Program-made: the position numbers and the translations under genes | Part shown: positions 12,369-61,241 of the stretch, one piece after another | How positions within the stretch are numbered: position 1 is the first letter of the stretch | Layout: the number at the start of each line of letters is the position of its first letter | DNA from: Carcharhinus amblyrhynchos | Lineage: Eukaryota | Direction of reading: 5' to 3' | Assembly: GCA_965287045.1 (NCBI GenBank) | Contig: OZ336885.1 | Location: 62,124,001 to 62,188,000, forward strand | DNA: 64,000 nucleotides | The notes under the pieces: generated by a model | Databases searched by the model: none | What the model was told of the DNA's origin: nothing | What the model saw: only the letters and a program-made list of their open reading frames with translations

Positions 12369-12783
12369 TAAAGGGAAATGGTTAATGAATTTTGTACTTA
12401 AAGTTTGTGCATGGGCATTGCAAATGTCATCTATTTGTCCACGCTTTTTTTGCCAACTAAACTTAGCTAAACAGCTGCAGATGCTGAATGGTCGTAAGGG
12501 CTGTTTGCAAGGAGGGATCATGCTCAGAGGAGGCACTGCGGACCTGCCTGGAGCTGAGAGCTGCAACCGTGATTGGGACCGGGATCTGTGATCGTGACTG
12601 GTGTCGGAAGAACTGCATCGTGACTGTGGCCGGGAACTATACTGTATAAATATCCACACTCAGATGCATTTGGGAAGAAGTCTCGCAGACCGCTTTAGGA
12701 ACCAGATTCTCCCAAAATGTTGTAATAAAGCCATTATACTATGAACCACGAACAGTCGCAGAAGTATTACTTTACCTACAACA
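12369..12783 (+). repeat. ERV 5' LTR
   Basis: Aligns with 19840-20220; TATAAA 12645-12650, AATAAA 12724-12729, ends ...ctacaaCA. The start could alternatively be the TG at 12366. Confidence 0.9.
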
Positions 12784-12786
12784 AAT

Positions 12787-12804
12787 TGGCATCGCAATCA
12801 CGAT
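12787..12804 (+). promoter_or_regulatory. Primer binding site, tRNA-Ser-like
   Basis: TGGCATCGCAATCACGAT lies 3 nt after the LTR and matches 13/18 to TGGCGTCACGAACAGGAT (complement of a vertebrate tRNA-Ser 3' end, as recalled). Confidence 0.55.
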
Positions 12805-12899
12805 TACATTTGCAGACCCGTTGAATGTCAACAACCGGGGCACCGGACTCGAACACTGAGCCTTATGGAGTAGGTAAAACTATAGTGGACAATCATCTG

Positions 12900-14500
12900 C
12901 GATGAGAAAATATGGAATGGAAGGCATCTGAACTGAAGACATGCAGACAAGATCCGTTGTAAAGAGGGGTATCCCCCCAAGCGAAGGTCAAGAACTCGAA
13001 GTGGGTGTAGCAACTGGAGTAAGAGGTGTTTGGCGCGTGATCTTCAGACGTGAATGAGAGAGAAACTGTCTCAGTGATTGGCGGAGCGAAAAGAAAAGCT
13101 ATTTTTTATATATATAGTGTGAGCAGTTATTTGGAAAGATTTGATCACCCTTAACAGTTATCACCGGACTCTGATAAGAGTGACCTAGGAGTGGGAGAGC
13201 GAGAAGGGAAAATACAAGACTCCAGGTGTTTTGTATAAACTTATCGATGTGGATTCACAAGAACAGCGGGGCACCCGGGATCCCTGATAAATCAGTATAT
13301 GACGAAAAGAAACAGACTCATGAAACAGATGACAAAAGTTGTCTGGGACACGTCCCACCCTCTAGATTAACAGCACAAGTGTATGAAAAAAAAATGAAAG
13401 ATAGGACCAAGAAAACCGAAGTTTTGATGGTGCACCAACTAGCCAGACTGATTAAACAGTTCTCTGGCTCGAGTAAAAATATGGGCCGATGATAAGAATC
13501 AAGACATTAGAATCATATGTTCGCGAACTGGGGAAAAAATGCCAAACAATAGGGGACCATTCTTGGGAATACTGCCCCCATACCCAAGCAGCCGATTAAT
13601 AAAGCCCACGGTGCCGGTGAGAGATTTTGACTTGGAGGTTCATGACTTGGCCCCTGTAGTTCGGGGAGTTACTACGTTTGCGCCCACTGCCCGATTTTAG
13701 CCGTACATCCCAGGGGAAAAACACCAGAACTTGTTTTCGCTGGCAAAACTTTAGCTCCGGAGTGCGAATGTCAAATTTTGGTCGGTGTTGGACACAATCT
13801 GGCTTGGCCATCAGTTACACTTACGAGATATACGTCAGTTGGTATGAGACGCCAGCCCACAGGACAAATGGGGACTGAAGGGTGACGGGATGGTCCCAAC
13901 AGGAACCCACCAAACGGACTCGTTTTGATTACGCGGGAGGAAGGTGCACACAAATAGGTGAGATAACAGCAGAAGTGGAGACACAGCAGGAACAATTTAA
14001 TCGGTTTAAGGCAGACGTTCAGCCAACTGGCATAAAAAAAAACAAATGTTAAACAACAGAAGATTGAAGGGCTTTTTAAGATCTACTAGGAATGCTCAGG
14101 GATGCCAGAAGCCGCCCGTACAGATAGAACATTTAAAATGGACTGACATTGGCTCTTCAGAAAATCCTTAAAATGAGAGTTATCAGTTCACGGAATTATG
14201 ATGTAGTCGTGGAATGTGCTTTTGGGATTAAGGACGGACCAGAATAAAAACAATACCAAGAGTAAAGCAGGAACACATAGCCTTAACTAACGGAATCAAG
14301 CCGAAGGGGACTTGTCATAATTGTGGGAAGCCAGGAAATTTCGCCCGGTACTGAAGGGCCCCAAAATGGGGTATGAGGAAAATGCTTACATGCCAATTTT
14401 GCAACAAGAGCGGATATGCAGAAGCCACGTACTGGGGCAAACACGGTAGATTTAACCTGTCTCCCCCACTGCAACGAAGGCAGTCGGCAGCCTCCTTGGA
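12900..14500 (+). pseudogene. gag: ERV gag remnant with two CCHC zinc knuckles
   Basis: CHNCGKPGNFARY*RAP at about 14313-14363 and CQFCNKSGYAEATYW at 14391-14435. The 5' boundary is uncertain. Confidence 0.75.
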
Positions 14501-15009: not shown

Positions 15010-18000
15010 AACCTCACTGACAATATCCCATTAAACCCGAAGCCAATAAGCAGGTCCAAGAAATTGTGATGGGATTGGTGGAAAAAGGGATCCTTCAGGA
15101 GACCATCAGTACCACGAACTCCCCGACTTGAACTGTGTCCAAACCGGGTGTGAGTTACCGATTAACCATTGATTATATAGCTTTAAATAAAGCAACTCCT
15201 AAACTACATCCCATTGTGGCCAGCCCCTCCAGCATCATAAATAGATTGCCACCATGCTATGAGATCGATCCCCTTAGACTTTTATTCACAGGATAATTTT
15301 GCCTTCATAATCGTCAATATACGTGGAATAGGCTCCCCCAGGGATTCCATAACAGCCAAGACATATTTCACCGGGTAATGAGTAAGATGTTGGAACACGT
15401 GGAACTCCTGAAAGGGAGCACAATTTTACAGTATGTAGAGGAAATCTTGACAGCCTCCGAAACTAAAGCGCAGCATCACACGGCACTAAACTCGATCTTG
15501 AAGCACTTGGAAGATCGGGAGTTAAAGGCGAACCAAAAAAACATGGCCCGATAGGAATTTCGCAGATATTATATTTGGGACATTTAATATTTGGGACGAA
15601 AGAAATGCCCGTAGACAGGAACACGACGATACAATAAGTGCCAAGGCCAATAACTATGCGAGGTGTAAGGAGGTTTGGGATTATTTAATTACAACCACGA
15701 CTTCATACCAGCATTTGCTAAATTAACTATGCCAAGATAAAGGCTCGTAAAAGGGAAGAAAACTGTTCTCGAAGCTGTAGAGGATGTGGGGGCGGGGGTA
15801 GAGCAGGAGGAACCATACTGTAAATTAAAAGTAAGATTAATGTCGGCGCCAGTACTTGGGTTACAAGGCGCTAGCACGAATTTTCATATCTATTGTAACA
15901 TAGCAGGCGGGTTCTATTCGGCAGTGACCCAAACTCACGGGGACAAACAGTGGCTGATGGAATATTATTCTCCAGCCGAAGGCCCCATAGTAATTGAATT
16001 ACACTGATGTATAGCCGCACTATATTGCGTGGCATGGGCGGAAAAACTCAGCGAGTCCATTGTAATGACGGGAAATATACTCTTCCACACCAAACATAGC
16101 ATGCTGGGCATGTTAAATGCAGGAAAATTACGAACTGCCTCAAACATGAGAAGGGCGAAGTGGGAGGAAGAACTTCTTCCCCCCACACATCCATCGCCAT
16201 TGTACGAGACACGAGAGAGAACCCCACCAAAGAAATGTTATGTGAAGGAAAACCACACATGTGGAAAGATAGATGAGGAAATAGAGAAAAGTAGAATACA
16301 TGACATGAGGCATTGGTGGAGGACCTGTTTGTGGAGGGGTCAGGGGAGTATGTAGACAGGTACTGCAAATGGCATGGTGGTAAACACGGACTTAGAAGTA
16401 GTCTGAGCAGGAAGGATAGAGGGATGTATGCCAGCACAAGTGGCAGAACTCGTGGCCTTGACCCAGGCTTTTACTGGGGCAGCAGGGAGAAAGCTCAATA
16501 TTTACACTGACAGTAGATATGCATTTGGAATTGTGCATGACTATATGACCGTTTGTGGAAGAAGGGGATTTGTTACAATGGGAGGCACTCCAGTTAAGTA
16601 TGGACAGATAATCAAAGCATTATTGGATGCCAGTGAGCTCCCATTAGAAGACACGGTATTGAAGGTAAAGGCGCACCAAAATGAACCAGATAAGCAAAGC
16701 CCTGAAAGGTATATGTTTAAAGGGAAACCAGGCAGCCAACGAAGCTGCAGAATCAGTCTTAGGAACAGGAGAAGTGCAAGCCGTGTCGGCCGCCTCAGTT
16801 AGAGTTGAACCCCCAACAGACATCTCAGAGCTACATTATGATACACCTGAAATAAAGCACACGAGGTTGAAAACTCAATGAGCTACACCTGATGAAAAGG
16901 GTGTATGGAGGTTAGTGGATAATGTTCTAGCGCCAGAATGTATCTAGCACATTCTGATGGAGTTATGTCATGGACTGTCACATGTGAGAAGACATGGCAT
17001 GACAACAGTACACAGAAGGAGTGGTGGTGGAAACGAATGGGATGGAACACACACGTTGTTGTCATTGGTGTGTTATTTGCGCACCGTAATCCCCAGGGAG
17101 GCCTTTAAAAATCAGGATCGGGGAACAACCTTGTTCTAAAGGTCCCTGGGAAAATCTACAAATTGACGTTGCAGGACGTTTTCCTCAGTAATACTTGCTG
17201 GCTAAGACGTGCTGGTTAAGTGCATTAACTTGAACAGATGTTGGAGCGTGATAATTAGGGGATTTTCATGGTAATTTCATTACCGTGTTAATGTAAGCCT
17301 TACTTGTGAGTAATAAATAGTCACACGGGAAAACTTACTACTTGGTGATAATTGACAAATTAACCAGATGGGTAGAGGCATTCCAGACTGAAAACTATTC
17401 AGCCACTACGTTGGCAAGAATATCAGCTGAGGAAGTTATTGCGAGGTCGGGGGTACCGTTACAAATAAACTCCGATCAAGGCACACACTTCACGGGGAAG
17501 ATAGTAAAAAAAAACATATGTTAATTGATGGGGACAAAACAGACATTTCACAAATCCTACCGCCCTCAAAGTTCAGGAATGTTGGAGCGTATGAATAGAA
17601 CTATTAAGACCACCCTGGCAAAGGCTATGCAGGGCTTGGAAAAAAAGGTGGACCGAGCTGTTGCCCACAATATTAATGAAAATCAGAGACACTACGAATC
17701 AAACCACCGGGCTGACGCCATATGAGCTAATGACCAGAACGATTATGCAGCTGCCTGAGTCCATTATTACCTGTGGGAGAGATGTAGGCCAATCACAGGA
17801 TCGGGTTAAACGGTATGTTTTAGAACCAAGGGCCCTACTGAGGAATATGTGAAAAACAGTGAGGCAAAACCAAATAGAGAAGGATTAGCACACTGAGTTG
17901 GAACAGACACCTGAGGTAACGGCGGTAGGTAGCAGGGTTATGGTAAATTCGTTACCTTGAAAGCCTGTGTTCGCCACCCCGCACCCCCCGCCACAATAGA

Positions 18001-18110
18001 ATTGCCTCTATGCGGCCATAACCAGTTGAAATATTTGTGCCTGCGTAGATATGCATGGCAGGGTTGCCTGGAAACATTGGACTCAATTGAAAGAATATGC
18101 CGGCACAAAT
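15010..18110 (+). pseudogene. pol: ERV pol remnant: RT, tether, RNase H, integrase
   Basis: RT: QYPIKPEA, YRLTIDY, YTWNRLPQGFHNS, QYVEEI (YVDD). Tether: LMSAPVLGL. RNase H: AQVAELVAL...NIYTDSRYAFG...KVKAH. IN: GPWENLQID, IIDKLTRWVEAF, INSDQGTHFTG, YRPQSSGMLERMNRTIK, WKHWTQLK. Confidence 0.95.
17204..17319 (+). mobile_element. 5'-truncated V-SINE tail inserted in ERV integrase
   Basis: aagacgtgctggttaagtgcatt...gtgttaatgtaagccttacttgtgagtaataaata is the reverse complement of the tail at 4903-5040. Confidence 0.85.
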
Positions 18111-18255
18111 TGGGGAGAACAATGTACTCAATTCACAGGGAGGATGAGATGACTGATCTCCAAGCAAGCTGAATGGGTGCGTGGAAGTTGTGTTTGGGCA
18201 ATATAACCTTTGCTGCATTGTATAATGGTCCGCCGGGTTATAATTAAGTGATAGA

Positions 18256-19777
18256 ATGCTTCTATTGCTGCTTCTCGCGATCCTCACCCTGCCAGCCAAT
18301 GAGGAAAAGTATAGATGGGATTGCGCAGAGTTGCGGACAGAACATCACAAGCATCCCTCTAACAATCACTCTGTCTACTGTAATCTTCTGACGTATGGAG
18401 TACACCGCTGGGATGAACTCGGGATTTCTTTACCATACCATGTTCGGAACTCTGTTGGAGGGGCGAGTTGATTGGGGTCTCCAAAGCAATGTAACTAGAA
18501 TTTCCGGTGTTTAGCTGAGGAGCTGGGATAGACCGGTGCCCTAGAACAGCAGAGGTTTCGGGGGGATGAATACATGAAGACTAGATTTGGCTCATCCAAG
18601 TGGCCATTGCATCAATCCTTTAATAGCGGATCCAACACGTGAACACTTCCGTATATATGTCTCACATGCGTGCATTACACTCAAATTTGAGCAAGTGTTC
18701 GGTCTGCTCAGACTTACCCATGCACGGAGGAAAAGGGGAGAGTCTTTTATTCCCTATCGCTTTGTCAACTCCGGAAATGGTAGAATGGATTTTGAGTCAG
18801 ATTGGAACCCAGGGCTGTGCAAGGAAAGTGACATTTAAAACCCCATCAGGCACTACTATTTAAGATACTTTCAATTTCAACGATAGCCATGCTGTTTCGG
18901 GGTAGTAAGCGGAGGGCGCACTGCATTAGCCTTTCAGAACCATTGCCAGCCCAGCTATAACAGATCAGGCTCTCCTCCCCGCTTCGTTGTGAAAAGCCAG
19001 CAAAGGGGGTGTGTCTGCTTGGGAAGAAACAGAACCTTACCTGGGGGCTGTAGAGATTGTACTCAGCAGGTTAATGTCATCAATGGTGCCAGTGGGTTTT
19101 GGTGCAACAGATTATAATCCATTGCACCACACCGATGTCCTGATCAACCTCTCCTCTGCTTATGTGAGCAGTATGACCGCACATAATGGTACCTATTTTC
19201 TCTGTAGAAGCAACGCATACCCGTGGCTTCCTTGGAATTGGGCAGGATCGTGTTATTCACCATGTGTGGTGCCCTATATTCACCATTACACTGACTTTCG
19301 GGACGACTCCGCGATACACATGCTCAGGGCTAAGCAAGCCAATTGTGAGACAGCACGGTTCCTCGTGATAGCCTACCCATCTTATGGGACGGCAAAAAAC
19401 AGCTGAGGGAACTGGCTGGCACTCCATTATGTATTAGCCTCCCAGAGAGGAATGTGTGCTACAATTTGTTCTGGAAGCTGAACATATATCCCAGATGATT
19501 TGGCAGATCATTTCAAATGGGTAGCAAAGATAATAAAAGATGATGTGAGCCAATGTCATAATTATAACCGTCTGGGATGGCTCGGAAATGGTTCGGGTTG
19601 TGTGGATCATACCTGATGCATGGGTTGATTGCATTAGTTGTCATTGTTATTGCATTTTGTGTTTGTACGGCATTATCAGAGGCTTGTAAAACAGCAGCAG
19701 CCTGGATTATGGAGTTCAAGTGTACAGGCAGAAGGAGCGGACCTACTGGCGAAGGACATAGGCCCACGTGCTGGTAA
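18256..19777 (+). pseudogene. env: ERV env remnant, gamma-type
   Basis: Signal-like MLLLLLLAILTLP; NLSKCSVCSDLP (CXXC); NGTYFLC..NAYPWLPWNWAGSCY; RAKQ (furin site) 19326-19337; LALHYVLASQRGMC...TYIPD (ISD/CX6CC remnant); TM helix GLIALVVIVIAFCVC. Confidence 0.9.
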
Positions 19778-36725: not shown

Positions 36726-37019
36726 TTTTTTTGGAAAAACATCATTCATTCCTAACAACAAACACAGTCTATATTCTTACAGAAAAATCGCCTTTTATTG
36801 ACACCGCCACTATTGGCACATCATTTCCGCATCTACCCAACATGATTTTGTAAAAGTGGCGCAGGTTTCCATGAAATCCATCCTCATTCTGCTAATCTGC
36901 AGCGACTAAAATCATAACCGACACACTTTCCATTCATTTGTCAGTGTTCACTTCCAAGTAATCAATTTGTTAAATATTTGGTGCACTCCTCCATGACAAG
37001 AACAACTTTCTTCAGGTAA

Positions 37020-37115
37020 ACAGAGCAGAAATCTACACAATTTCCAGATGTGGTCTCAGCGAGACACTGTACAATTGCAACAGGCCATGACTTCCTCTAC
37101 AGCCAAATCCCTCCC
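37020..37115 (-). mobile_element. Short CR1 fragment
   Basis: LLQLYSVSLRPHLE in ORF 37033-37233. Confidence 0.65.
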
Positions 37116-38281
37116 CCCCACATTTTATGATCCAGACATTTGCCCCCTTTTGACAAGTAACACTGAATCCTTTACAGGGGAATACTTTGAAGTATAATTG
37201 ATTAAAAGTTTGTGGAAGGTGTAAATTCTTCATAAGAAAGGTTGTTGTTAGCTAATAGAAATACCTGTCAGTCACTTTAGATAAACATTTATCTTTCCTT
37301 CAATTTAACAAACAGCGAAGCTTAATTGAAAAAGTAACACACTGAATAAATAAAAATCTCATGGAATGCTGTTCAACTCATGCAGTTCCCGTTCATTAGT
37401 AGTATTAACAATCATGATAAAAACTTTAGTCACTCCCAAAAAGAAGCAACCACGTTCTGTGTCTTTCTGAATCTCTTGGATATTCTTGGATGATGTCTTT
37501 GACTTTAAGTGCTTTATACTTTGGCAACGTTCACTCGTAAGATGATGCGTCCTCACAAGAGATATCAAAAGATGGGAGGGTGGAGAACTGTTCTCTTCGT
37601 TTCGAGGCTTCAGAGATGGCATCTGATATCTCATGATTTATCCCCTTAATAGCTGTGATGACTTATCGATTTTCCGACAACAGGATTGTTCTGAACTTGT
37701 CAACGTGTTGGCATTCACATGTCATATGTCCCTGGGAGCTGAGTGTCTGCTTCTGATGGTTCATTTTATTTTTATGATTTAAGTTTTCTTGTCAGTACTA
37801 TTGCTTGATTGTTTGATGCAAATCTTGAAGCTTGGTTTCAGCTTCAAGTTTGTATGTGCTTTGCATTTTAATCTCAAAGCACTGAAACAAAACAAACATT
37901 TATAAAGGAAAGGCAATGTTTTCCCGTCCAGCATTTCTTTTTTTTTACCTTTTTTTTTCATTTTTGCTGCCATCAGATTCCAGACTTAAACATTCACCTT
38001 CACAAAACCACCCATCTTCTTGCCGCCTGCAGCACCATCATTGTTGCCTTCAGTAAGAGATGTAAGAGGGCTTCCAATTCTAGTTGCACATTCCCATTTC
38101 CTATATGATACGTGTTCAGTGAAAATCTGCCTTCCCGTTTCTGCCGTGAACGTGGCAATGTTCTAATTATCCACTTGTTGCTACATGACCATTGTCACAC
38201 AATATCATGCAGCAAGATAGATGGATTCAGTGAGAGGCGTGCAAGAGTTTGGAAAAGATGTGACCTACCCTCATTTTCTGA

Positions 38282-38361
38282 TGCCAACTTCGTGAAGGCA
38301 CGGAAGAGCCTTCACGAAGTTGGCAGTTACTTCTGTATTTAAACTAAATACAGAAGTAACT
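38282..38361. repeat. Two abutting perfect inverted repeats (18-bp and 17-bp arms)
   Basis: TGCCAACTTCGTGAAGGC-acggaaga-GCCTTCACGAAGTTGGCA and AGTTACTTCTGTATTTA-aac-TAAATACAGAAGTAACT, sharing base 38325. Confidence 0.97.
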
Positions 38362-39984
38362 CGATTTTGAATGCCCTCCGAGTGATCAGGTCAAAAGCCA
38401 CGAATGGACCTTACAGATTAAAAAGTAAACCAGAACAGCTGGCACCACAAGCGTCCCAGTGATTATCACGTCCATACAAAATGCATAACCGAGCTACAAG
38501 GAAGTATTTGTCGCCAGACTGCTGGAGGGATTCATGATTCCAGACGTTCTGTAGTCCTCTATATGATTGTTAAGTGATAATCAAGTGATTTCAAATATTT
38601 GGACAATCAATTAAAATACATATTGCATCAACGCTTGTACCAGTGACTGCTGACATTCGTTCTGAATATTGGCCACCGCCCTGAACAAACATGTTCCCTT
38701 GCAGCTCAAACGCTGACATATATACGAAAATGTGGAAATATGTCAAAGTCTGCCCTCCATCAAAAAAATGCAAGAATATTCTAATAAAGCCATTCATTAT
38801 TCATGATTTTCATCATAAGAAGTTCGAATAAATTTCCTTCATCAAAATAACATTCAGAGGGAAATTGAAAGAGTGACTCAAAGCCTGAGCGGCCTTGCTA
38901 ATGCATGCTATCTAAATTATGTTACTCGTGAAAAAGGGAAGAGGAAGCGGTCGCCCCTTTTCTTTGTTAACAGCAAAAGGAACATTACAAAGCATGTGAA
39001 CATTCCGAAACTCTATGGTAGTTTGCGCGTCACTGTAATATTAATTTGCATTCAAGTTTCAATTTAAGCGTCATTTCTTTCTATGAGTTACTTGATTCAC
39101 TACTCCCAGGAAATTAGATGCAGCTTTTGCATCATTACACCAGGATGAGAACGTCTTTTTCTTGTTCCTGCACTAACAAAACACAAACACATACTGAGAA
39201 CAAACAGTTACTGTTCTGAATTTTATATCCGAAGTTAACATTCAAAACCGGAACATTTCACTGGCGTGATCCAAAGAGAGAAATAAAAAACTATTGCCTT
39301 CATGTTTTTTATATGTTTCTGAACAATATCCACAAGTTTCTCTGAAATAGCCATTATTTTTGCATCTAACTAAATTAAATGTTATCATTTCCTATCTCAC
39401 TTCATGCTTCCGCAAATTGGTCATCAACACTAGATGTTTTCTGAGAAATTCAGGAATCTTCCAGTTGAGACATCAAAAGTATACTGCGTTTGGCTTCACT
39501 GTGAAATCGTGGAGAGCAATCGCATGGAGACAAGATGGTATACTCTTCTGTCGTAAAGATTCTGGAATTACTGAATTGGTTCCACAGATTAAACGAATCA
39601 CAACTTATTGTCAAGAATTACGATTACGATAATGGCATCATAAGCTAACACATTGACAAAACCATATCTAAACTGATTAAAATGATGCAATAATAATAAA
39701 TAAGGGTGGATTGGGAAGCACACGTACTCTGGTGACATCCTTCAAGTAGAATTCCAATGTTTGATTGAAAATTTTCATCTCCTATTGATTGTGTTTCGTC
39801 GTTCTTCATTCTTACGTCATCAAGAGACAACATGGCAGCTGTAAAACAAATGCAAAAAATGAGAAATATCCCAATTAAATCTACACATTAGGAAGTGCTT
39901 AAGTGTCTAACAACACGTGAATGTGATATCTGCCTGATCAGTGATTTTTTTTTCAAAAAACGTCATTTTATGCACACAATAGAA

Positions 39985-48520: not shown

Positions 48521-49979
48521 GTCAGCGACACAATGGTCGCATGAGAGTCAATAAGTGAGCAGCTGCCAGTCCTCCATTTAATTCCAGGCAACTTCTCAGG
48601 GGAACGAGTATGAACTGCGAGGGGCAAGGTTTAAATGACATGTATGAGGCATATTCATTTTCACAGTGTGTGCCTTTCACTCGCTGCGGGGAAGTCCTCA
48701 GGCAAATATGAGATTGACCTGTAGGGGGTCCCTTTACAGTTACGTGAATGTGATGGGAAAAGAGGCATGTGGTCCCCAGAAGCGTTAAGGTGGGGCTTGA
48801 AATCAGATGGCATCTCAAAGTGATCGTCAAGTTACAGCAGGCGACTGGAGAGTCACAGGGAGTCATGACAGAGACACAGTGGGCCATTGCTGAGCGACAG
48901 GCCAGGCATCACGAGATTTAGCGGACCATGGCAGAGAGCCTCAAGAATTTTAAGCGCATCCAGTGGGGCAGTGCTGAGGCCAAACGGGTTATGGCCTCAG
49001 CACTTGAGAATATGTTATATTCACAGATGGCCATGGTTGAGGTCCTGCAGAGCTTGCAAAAAACCCAAAGGGCAGCATTGAGTCACAGCAGGCCATGGAA
49101 GCAGCCCGTGAGAAAGCACACCAGTCGCAGATGGTTATTGTTATTGGGCTGCAGACTGTTGCAATTGCTGCGACGATTGGCAAGTGGCCCCCACTCAACT
49201 CGCCATCGCAGAGGGCTCCACCACAATAGATAAGACTCAGATGACCCTCCCAGACAGGCAGGGACTAGTGACACCAAAGCTTTGGCAGCTCACTGCAGAA
49301 GCACCACTGTCCCATGGAGTGACCCAGGGAGCAGGAAGGACTCGAATGCATGCCTGCTCCTTCATTCGTGACACTGTGGCTGTAACTACACATTGTAATA
49401 CCCCCGCCCAACACCGGCACATCTCCGGGGCAGCAAGATGAGGAGACTGTCATGGAAATGTCACAGACCCTGCAAGATGGTCAGGGCCCTCAAGTTCCAG
49501 AGCCTTCAGAGGACGCCCGCTATGCACATAACAAGAAACGGAGCAAGTTGGCACCTGGTGCCTACCACCTCTGGTGTGCATTTTTGCGAGACTCCAAGAC
49601 GTCCTGGTAAGCCAAGTTAGGACGTTGTGGTTGCGCAATGTTGCATGAGCGAAGGACACAATATAGCTCTTTATGCAGCTTAACGTTGACTGTTCACAAT
49701 TTTTATATCAGAACTTATTATTTAAACACCTTCATTATCATCATTAAAGGTTTCCCCCACCCATCGGTGGCTATTTTTTTCTTCAAATTTGTCTCAAAGA
49801 GGATGATACTACTCGCCTCACACCCGACTTAAACACGATTTCCCTTGCGAAAACAGGTGTCTCTTAATGGTAGAATCGGGACCGATATGTACCAACTCTC
49901 TCACCTATATATTTCACCCGACAACCCAACTCTACCAATGTATCACTGACCAAACGTACGCAAATACATAAATACGCAA

Positions 49980-57900: not shown

Positions 57901-58359
57901 CATCCCTCCAACGCTGCTGCGAAGTCATTGCAGCACGAATAATCAGATTAATCTTCTAAAAACGTTTGCATTGCAAGGCGATGGCATCATGCACAGACTA
58001 TTTTGCAGCAGTAATAGAGGCCTTTTTGACAAGATGCTCCAATGAGGTGCACTTTGTGAATTGAAGAAATGCCAACCTAGTAGTATTTGTATTTATGATT
58101 TGTTTCAGAAAGAAAATGTTTTTGTTGTGTCCTTCTTCATAATTACCAGATTGTGCGGTTCAGGAACATCTTTTAACCGATAATATGTGTATTATCAGAG
58201 TTGGGCCCGTTTGCAAAGAAGTAATATGGCAATTACAGATCTGTGAACACTGGTTCGTGTAGCACATTCTTGCGTCTTAGGAGGATAGAAAGTTTCACGA
58301 AGGGGAAAAAAAAAATCCAGTGCTCCTCATTGTTCACATCGAATGGTGCACTATGCTAA

Positions 58360-58970
58360 ACACAGGAGCATAAGAAATAAGACATAGGAGCAGGAGTGGG
58401 CCATCTAGCCCTTCGAGCCTGCCCCGCCATTCAATAAGATCATAGCTGATCTGTCGTGGCTCAGTTCCACATTCCCGCCCTCTCCCCATAACCCTTAGTC
58501 CCCTCGCTTATCAAAAACCCATCAACCCGCGCCTTAAAAATATTTAGCGAGGCAGCCCCCACCACTTCAACGGGCAGAGAATTCCAGAGATTCACCACCC
58601 TTTGAGTGAAGAAGTTCCTCCACAACTCCGTTCTAAACCGCCCCCCCCCCCCCCCGCTTTATCTTGAGGCTGTGCCCCCTAGTCCTACTGTCCTTTCTGA
58701 GCGGGAAGAGCCTCTCCACTTCTATCCTATCCATCCCATTCATCATGTTATCTGTCTCAACGAGATCTCCCCTCATTCTTCTAAACTCTAACGAGTACAA
58801 GCCTAGTTTATTCAGCCTCTCCTCATAGCTCAACCCCCTCAACTCCGATATCAGCCCAGTAAACTTCCTCTGCCCTCCCTCCAAGGCCAAAATATCCTTG
58901 CGTAAGTGCGGCGACCAAAACTGCACACAATACTCCTGCTGCGGCCTCACCAAAACCCTATACAGCTGCA
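58360..58970 (-). mobile_element. Young CR1 LINE 3' fragment
   Basis: ORF LYRVLVRPQQEYCVQFWSPHLRKD; near-identical to 59858-60465. Confidence 0.95.
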
Positions 58971-59126: not shown

Positions 59127-59167
59127 GGTAAATTATTCTGAGGGTTGAACCCACAGAATAATTTACC
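59127..59167. repeat. Near-perfect palindrome (20-bp arms, one mismatch)
   Basis: GGTAAATTATTCTGaGGGTT-g-AACCCaCAGAATAATTTACC. Confidence 0.95.
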
Positions 59168-59857: not shown

Positions 59858-61241
59858 AACATAAGAACATAAGAACATCAGAAATAGGAGCAGGAGTAGG
59901 CCATCTAGCCCTTCGAGCCTGCCCCGCCATTCAATAAGATCATGGCTGATCTGTCGCGGCTCAGTTCCACTTTCCCGCCCTCTCCCCATAACCCTTAATC
60001 CCCTCTCTTATCAAAAACCCATCAACCCGCGCCTTAAAAATATTTAGCGAGGCAGCCCCCACCACTTCAACGGGCAGAGAATTCCAGAGATTCACCACCC
60101 TTTGAGTGAAGAAGTTCCTCCACAACTCCGTTCTAACCGCTCCCCCTCCCTTTATCTTGAGGCTGTGCCTCCTAGTCCTCCTGTCTTTTTTGAGCGGGAA
60201 GACTCTCTCCACCTCTATCCTATCCATCCCATTCATCATCTCATATGTCTCAATGAGATCTCCCCTCATTCTTCTAAACTCTAACGAGTACAAGCCTAGT
60301 TTATTCAGCCTCTCCTCATAGCTCAACCCCCTCAACTCCGATATCAGCCTAGTAAACCTCCTCTGCACTCCCTCCAAGGCCAAAATATCTTCGCGCAGGT
60401 GCGGCGCCCAAAACTGCACACAGTACTCCAGCTGCGGCCTCACCAATGCCCTATACAGCTGCAGCAAGACCTCCCTACTTTTATATTCAATCCCCCTCGC
60501 TATGAAGGCCGGCATCCCATTCGCCTTCCTGACCACCTGCTGCACGTGCAAGCTGGGTTTTTGCGACTCATGCACAAGGACCCCGAGGTCCCTCTGCACC
60601 GTCGCCTGCTGCAGTTTTTCGCCACGTAAGTAATAGTCCTTCCTACCATTATTCCTACCAAAGTGGACCACCTCACACTTGCCAACATTAAATTCCATTT
60701 GCCATTTCCTGGCCCATTCGCCCAGCCTATCTAGATTCTTCTGCAGACTCTCCACACCCTCCGCACAATTTGCCGTTCCCCCAATCTTGGTGTCATCAGC
60801 AAATTTCGACACCCTACACTCGGTTCCCACCTCCAGATCATCTATATAAATGGTAAAAAGCTGAGGCCCCAGCACCGACCCCTGGGGCACTCCACTAGTC
60901 ACCTCCGCCAATCCGAATAGCACCCGCAGACCCCCACCCTCTGCCTCCTATTTGACAACCAATCCTCTATCCACGCTAACACCCTACCCCCAACTCCATG
61001 TCCCTCGACCTTCTGCAATAACTTCTTGTGAGGTACTTTGTCAAATGCCTTCTGAAAATCCAGAAAGACCACATCCACCGGCTCTCCTCTATCCACCGCC
61101 CGAGACACATCCTCATAGAACTCCAGTAGATTTGTCAGACACGACTTCCCTTTAATGAAATCTTGATGCGTCTGCTCTATCAAGCAATTCCCTTCAAGAT
61201 GCCTCGCAATTTCCTCCTTAATGACGGATTCTAACATTTTA
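59858..61241 (-). mobile_element. Young 5'-truncated CR1 LINE (RT and C-terminal region)
   Basis: ORFs 60899-61237 and 59961-60923 with [24 protein letters not shown]; (cataagaa)n tail. Confidence 0.97.

Follow-up and report, generated by a model that had tools for sequence, protein, structure and literature searches.

Two perfect hairpins joined flush in single-copy DNA of Carcharhinus amblyrhynchos, probably left by linked fold-back copying

The feature described here lies in a window of 64 kb (the window being the whole stretch of DNA that was analysed) and consists of two perfect hairpins standing back to back on the forward strand. Hairpin 1 pairs an 18-nt outer, left arm (38282..38299) with an inner, right arm (38308..38325) across an 8-nt loop (38300..38307), and hairpin 2 pairs a 17-nt inner, left arm (38325..38341) with an outer, right arm (38345..38361) across a 3-nt loop (38342..38344). 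Both pairs of arms match at 100%, which bears out the two abutting mismatch-free stems reported in an earlier note made from the sequence alone. The A at 38325 (38325..38325) is at once the last base of hairpin 1 and the first base of hairpin 2, so that the two overlap by 1 nt where they meet. Read from left to right, the inner 34-35 nt are the reversed complement of first the left and then the right outer arm; the first and the last base of the feature are both T.

No other perfect inverted repeat of the window is as long, the next two measuring 14 bp and 13 bp. The twin hairpin folds with a z of -8.26, none of 200 shuffles being equally stable, and the random expectation for a single arm of at least 17 nt is 7e-5 per 64 kb. 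The same note had added an outer stem (38261/38393) that would give the whole a T shape; this is a 6-bp perfect match at the ends of 38261..38393, which was equalled or beaten by 1212 of 2000 shuffles, appears in folds with RNA parameters and is absent from those with DNA parameters; it is at chance level and not counted in the feature. Reading the hairpins as a circle of about 79 nt is a correct restatement of the geometry but brings no extra evidence, since any two abutting hairpins give one. That hairpin 2 once reached further into the 3' flank and has decayed there, as a sub-threshold Rfam alignment hinted, was rejected because 451 of 2000 shuffles did as well; so was the idea that the arms are themselves nested palindromes (111-1000 of 1000 shuffles equally stable). 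Two further perfect hairpins of the window lie at 59127-59167 (14 bp), flanked by two 93%-identical LINE pieces (58359-58970 and 59858-60463), and at 48970-49004 (13 bp).

The hairpins sit in single-copy non-coding DNA (38156..39900). To their left, ending 127 nt before them, stands a decayed LINE fragment on the reverse strand (38013..38155), which we take from its translated motifs to be of the CR1/L2 type. When the feature was searched with its flanks, the non-self matches were confined to this LINE piece (about 38010-38155; 27 matches at 70-77% identity), and 38380-39900 proved to be single copy. Continuation of the LINE over the hairpins was rejected, a profile of 19 paralogues not reaching them. 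In long matches to paralogues the neighbouring repeats were 70-77% and 64-72% identical, in agreement with the decay of about 25% that had been estimated for them beforehand. An old repeat at 37120-38010 (about 68% identity, 481 candidates) lies between collinear LINE pieces at 36844-37110 and 38020-38155.

No ORF of at least 90 aa was found between 37638 and 39350. No host gene appeared among the 145 ORFs scanned from 1200 unmasked ones (at least 62 aa, 464 kb), which is weak evidence as exons are short; Pfam searches of these 145 returned retroelement-type domains, one SGNH/OSK match and two matches below cut-off. LTR-retroelement or provirus-like sequence lies 130-190 kb to the left of the window (L112-L113 and L118), with a gag zinc knuckle, protease, RT and RNase H in several ORFs and integrase domains in L112. 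Within the window, 12706-13459 holds decayed pieces of the LTR-element family of background locus L029, and further retroviral-like ORF fragments were seen by eye at about 16400-19400.

The twin hairpin is a single-copy feature of the 2.9-Gb genome. BLAST of the region against the animal's own 2.92-Gb assembly gave three matches, all of them self, and the 28-nt junction of the hairpins, with up to three mismatches allowed, likewise matched only itself. With up to two mismatches the hairpin-1 arm had 71 non-self matches, no two of them neighbouring and so none with both arms, and none of the 28 that were inspected was homologous; the excess of 73 matches over 10 for the reversed control was discounted, the control having two CpG against one. 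For the hairpin-2 arm with its loop there were 24 non-self matches against 37 for the control, all 24 lacking the hairpin-2 stem. In the roughly 1.3 Mb of DNA that was fetched, nhmmer found no second copy, and these copy counts carry the caveat that DNA searches of the genome may miss very old or very common sequence. Membership of the L029 LTR-element family, which matches an arm more closely than any other non-self sequence (17 of 18), was tried and rejected: its profile found nothing in 37-41 kb, where the best E was 3.9, and an equal score was reached by 200 of 320 window pieces.

Some or all of the stretch is present in 18 sequencing runs from ten studies: four belong to what is likely the source study, and the remaining fourteen represent six other organisms. 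The alignment to 38050-38750 used four of these runs, leaving out those with a small share (X7, X9-X13 and X15-X18) and those of the same study (X1-X4). The six other organisms are the only ones holding at least one twentieth of the words, a listing threshold at which an 80-nt island in a 1141-nt query just stands, and none of the holders listed is an RNA dataset. In organism A one contig spans the feature and 17 of 701 positions differ, all of them accounted for; the sole difference inside the feature is in the middle of the hairpin-2 loop (38343 A>G), so that the outer arm of hairpin 1 and both arms of hairpin 2 are unchanged. In organism B one contig (depth 2) spans the feature with 24 differences in 701, and within the hairpins neither an indel nor a joint was recorded; ten of the 24 were seen by position, one of them in the hairpin-1 loop (38303 G>C), which does not establish the state of B's stems. 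The note had itself named a fold-back assembly artefact as what would undo its case, and this can be set aside because independent contigs of two related organisms, from two other studies (X5 and X6), span the hairpins, one contig each, with no joint or indel.

Organism D differs at 28 of 660 positions and keeps 38282-38321 unchanged, including the outer arm of hairpin 1 and 38308-38321 of its inner arm, after which 38322..38362 is missing with a single A in its place (run X8, one contig, depth 14.5). The 41-nt gap, whose ends are not of splice type, thus takes the last 4 nt of hairpin 1, the whole of hairpin 2 and one flanking base, and because D keeps hairpin 1 without hairpin 2, the two halves of the "dumbbell" are separable. 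The allele of D is neither an empty site nor the allele before the event, which would have the outer arms but not the inner ones. Hairpin 1 is older than the split of species that differ by 2-5%. The alignment of organism E had no cover across the feature; D shares the C at 38081 with E and is probably the outgroup. Parsimony alone cannot separate a loss of hairpin 2 in D from a gain in the other three, but one deletion in D is the simpler course, since D has neither hairpin-2 arm and gaining the hairpin later would call for a template from outside; we judge a hairpin-associated deletion in D the likelier of the two.

How unusual perfect hairpins are in this genome was gauged on 60 background pieces of 10 kb each, chosen at round coordinates on large contigs, with loops of up to 30 nt and simple-repeat arms dropped. 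These 600 kb hold 19 perfect hairpins of at least 12 bp and six of at least 16 bp, against 0-1 and 0 in five shuffles. The earlier claim that such perfection in decayed surroundings needs explaining is thereby weakened, this genome having about one hairpin of at least 16 bp in every 100 kb. Two cases show the way in which they form. Of 30 copies of one LTR-element family, a single one carries a 24-bp perfect hairpin (L029/L081); copy L105 has only part of the site. The flanks of this hairpin have a median identity of 79% to 29 paralogues, and in the other copies a short non-palindromic stretch replaces one arm. The second case is a LINE copy that is interrupted at L166 and goes on with its last 28 nt in reverse complement, forming a 28-bp hairpin; at that point all ten displayed LINE copies run straight on, and none of 283 matches spans the hairpin. 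Since L029/L081 and L166 show the prior state in paralogues, perfect hairpins in decayed DNA of this genome arise by local fold-back copying.

The first of these hairpins (L029:1448-1501; G000:C9, about 102.802 Mb) has a 5-nt loop and lies in an LTR-element copy about 20% decayed, and at the second (L166:7063-7127) the arm continues for a few more nt with a single CpG-type mismatch. Further long perfect hairpins were seen at the background loci L036:1029-1111 (37 bp), L079:649-825 (58 bp, overlapping one of 23 bp) and L071:1553-1589 (16 bp), and about 24.9 kb left of the window start (G000:C16) an (AAT)n run followed by (ATT)n forms a 33-bp perfect palindrome, likely a microsatellite fold-back. 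No other long-armed flush pair was found in the 464 kb around the window or in the 600 kb of background, in which flush pairs have arms of 9-10 bp only and occur at two loci. Independent origin of the two hairpins predicts about 0.9 (0.1-4.2) flush pairs per genome, a figure to be read with the fact that this locus was pre-selected as conspicuous.

We consider it probable that the twin hairpin is a neutral scar of two linked fold-back copying events, by template switching or snap-back, a reading that builds on the geometry, the single copy, the presence in A and B, the missing hairpin 2 in D and the copy-specific hairpins elsewhere. The relatives, the background hairpins and the L029/L081 and L166 cases all speak for the template-switch product that the note had listed among several origins. 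A growing or broken strand would have folded back and copied its left neighbour, producing the inner arm of hairpin 1 (38308..38325, the likely fold-back copy), and a mirror-image fold-back would have copied the right neighbour into the inner arm of hairpin 2 (38325..38341), the two reversed copies being joined on the shared A. The outer arms, which are the likely pre-existing templates (38282..38299 and 38345..38361), and the loops would then be old sequence and the inner 34-35 nt new. A single four-point switch is insufficient because the templates lie on opposite sides of the insert and are not contiguous, so two steps are needed, and these we take to have been linked. They may have been serial template switches at one stalled fork; the second switch may have begun at the foot of hairpin 1, where a polymerase meets it; or both ends of a double-strand break may have been extended by snap-back and joined on the 1-nt overlap (A). 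The last would be the neatest account of the flush junction, with the enzyme left unnamed. The events would have occurred not long before the split of the species diverged by 2-5%, an age that at the differences counted in A, B and D suffices to explain why the stems are still perfect; organism D would later have lost hairpin 2, and drift since then would have been neutral, with no function. The mechanism is only inferred, as the pre-event allele was not seen among the relatives aligned (A, B and D).

The lengths and loops fall within what is reported for such mutations. Short template switches have a median length of 12 nt (MAD 4.5; PMC7954356), and types 3-2-1-4 and 1-4-3-2 are each described as creating one inverted repeat (PMC5453318). 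The locus has the perfect reverse-complement copy within tens of nt that characterises them (stems 100%, loops of 8 and 3 nt), but one reversed fragment in one event does not produce it and at least two switches are required. Inverted templated insertions are given as 3-30 bp (PMC11292364), and measured against that source the insert size, short loop and minimal junction homology all agree. In snap-back SD-MMEJ either side of a break is reported to snap back (PMC5728401, PMC7165422, PMC11292364); first-round synthesis by polymerase theta is described as rarely exceeding 10 bp (PMC7165422), and the 17-18-bp tracts would argue mildly against that enzyme. A flanking direct repeat, or micro-triplication with inverted middle, was sought under four scoring schemes and two spans and rejected, 269-1837 of 2000 dinucleotide shuffles and 374-1800 of 2000 real background pairs being as good; a wide direct alignment of the 5' against the 3' flank was equalled by 12 of 300, as one among seven tests.

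It is also conceivable, if rather unlikely, that the structure, at least hairpin 1, is now under selection as a DNA cruciform or as the RNA stem of an unannotated transcript or regulatory element. The stems show no change in A (69 nt) or in D (32 nt), a weak hint only (joint P = 0.076 at flank rates), and both changes visible within the feature (in A and B) fall in loops that make up 11 of its 80 nt, yet the loop change of B comes from one contig of depth 2 and all 11 undisplayed rows are B's. The hairpins lie in about 1.7 kb of single-copy DNA, and template-switch hairpins can become miRNAs (0.9% of suitable human-lineage loci; PMC10710096), but stems of 17-18 bp fall short of the 30-55 nt used there for miRNA-like hairpins, no Rfam family reaches its gathering score in the window (four weak matches within 36-41 kb are all below it), and no compensatory pair was seen in the aligned relatives. 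Organism D, moreover, does without hairpin 2 and without 4 bp of stem 1, and template-switch correction is reported to be able to keep stems paired with no need of selection (PMC5453318; PMC8794818). About equally doubtful is the specific proposal that one germline double-strand break had both ends snapped back and joined on a single base, with hairpin 1 retained structurally ever since. A different polarity, with D as the older state and hairpin 2 a later gain in the line leading to this species, A and B, appears improbable. An ectopic short piece, lengthened by snap-back, would have been attached to a break at the foot of hairpin 1, and fold-back would have completed the last 4 bp of that hairpin; the probable outgroup position of D favours this, but an ectopic template and two snap-backs must be weighed against one deletion in D. 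A possible source, L071 (contig C20), shares 23 exact nt with 38327-38349, but by our rough estimate 0.05-0.15 such matches are expected by chance, and this one is unreported at E 0.001 and lies in an AT-rich repeat tail; tiling hairpin 2 from local sequence did no better than shuffles (1687 of 5000). The match itself (L071, about 1500-1525, G000:C20), borderline for chance, stands about 30 nt from a separate 16-bp hairpin.

For mobile and viral origins there is no support. That the hairpins are the core of an ancient low-copy non-autonomous DNA element of Eulor/UCON/Crypton or MITE type, with its other copies decayed past detection, has little probability. A 6-bp inverted match does bracket them (38261/38393) and DNA searches of the genome may overlook very old copies, but the outer stem, the 3' stem extension and a flanking direct repeat are all at chance level, no second copy was found, the nhmmer search included, and holders of at least one twentieth of the words come from only six other organisms; had age removed every relative, 34 perfect pairs would not persist without selection. 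The suggestions of a small self-complementary mobile unit and of a Eulor/UCON/Crypton-type element run against the single copy, the lack of significant terminal or flanking repeats and the missing hairpin 2 of D, and the searches of this genome give no sign of an internal part of a MITE either, many copies, terminal inverted repeats and a target-site duplication all being wanting. Least credible of all is the capture in one piece of a hairpin-capped 79-nt dumbbell, be it a viral end, an excision product or a collapsed DIRS-like element. The left end, the two overlapping internal complements and the right end formally mirror the termini and internal complementary regions (ICRs) of DIRS elements, and the terminal bases are both T; but the overlap is 1 nt where DIRS elements have a 3-nt circular junction, NTT ends and a conserved ITR are lacking, and the complements total 34 nt against 85-130 (PMC3266345). 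The genome has no related family, the junction 20-mer had no exact match in viral_contigs or in metagenome_contigs, a target-site duplication does not rise above chance, and D is not an empty site. The captured hairpin-capped intermediate of the note accordingly loses ground to a single copy with no significant terminal or flanking repeats and to a relative that keeps hairpin 1 alone.

Taken by itself the locus matters little, being likely a neutral mutation scar of linked fold-back copying. Extrapolated from six in 600 kb, the genome would hold about 29,000 perfect hairpins of at least 16 bp, at least some of them copy-specific fold-backs. A double snap-back scar, if that is what this is, would be recognisable and could be counted genome-wide as a mutation class of its own, and the number of flush pairs would be a test: independence predicts about 0.9 (0.1-4), and a clear excess would point to linked two-ended copying in a slowly evolving vertebrate germline. 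A limited literature search returned no published two-ended snap-back with two inverted repeats, which does not imply absence from print.

Among known systems, the parvoviral T-shaped ITR has two hairpins back to back on a long closing stem. The twin hairpin shares the two short hairpins but has no long closing stem, no viral flank was seen, and there is no match in viral contigs. Eulor/UCON repeats are rich in hairpins. Like them and the Crypton-derived Eulor5/6 (PMC5753468), the feature is short, non-coding and self-complementary; it differs in being single copy and in lacking one half in a close relative, and among the holders listed it gives no evidence of deep conservation. With DIRS1-like elements it has in common a pair of neighbouring inner segments, one complementary to each outer end, but in these elements the ICRs are described as overlapping on a 3-bp circular junction complementary to the NTT ends (PMC3266345), whereas the feature has a 1-nt junction, no NTT ends, ITRs or coding region, a length of 80 nt and a single copy. 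Neither an ITR of at least 66 bp nor gag, RT and YR was found, and the match of hairpin 1 to hairpin 2 was equalled in 1362 of 2000 shuffles. Closer is snap-back SD-MMEJ with polymerase theta, for which the cited reports give inverted copies of 3-30 bp of the break flank, priming on 1-3 bp, a short loop and little or no microhomology, as here; the difference is that both ends would have to snap back in one repair and that the cellular first-round tracts reported are rarely above 10 bp, and the enzyme cannot be named from sequence. The four-point template switch, in which the repeats are made in one step, shares perfect short inverted repeats with small loops, non-coding and lineage-specific, with arm lengths in the reported range (PMC5453318, PMC7954356, PMC8794818, PMC10710096), and repeat events at one hairpin locus are reported as loop inversions. 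It differs in that here two mirror-image hairpins stand flush with a 1-nt overlap, which no single event gives; type 3-1-4-2, as derived from its switch order, does yield two inverted repeats, but interleaved. The flush two-sided geometry is thus an uncommon variant of a known mutation class.
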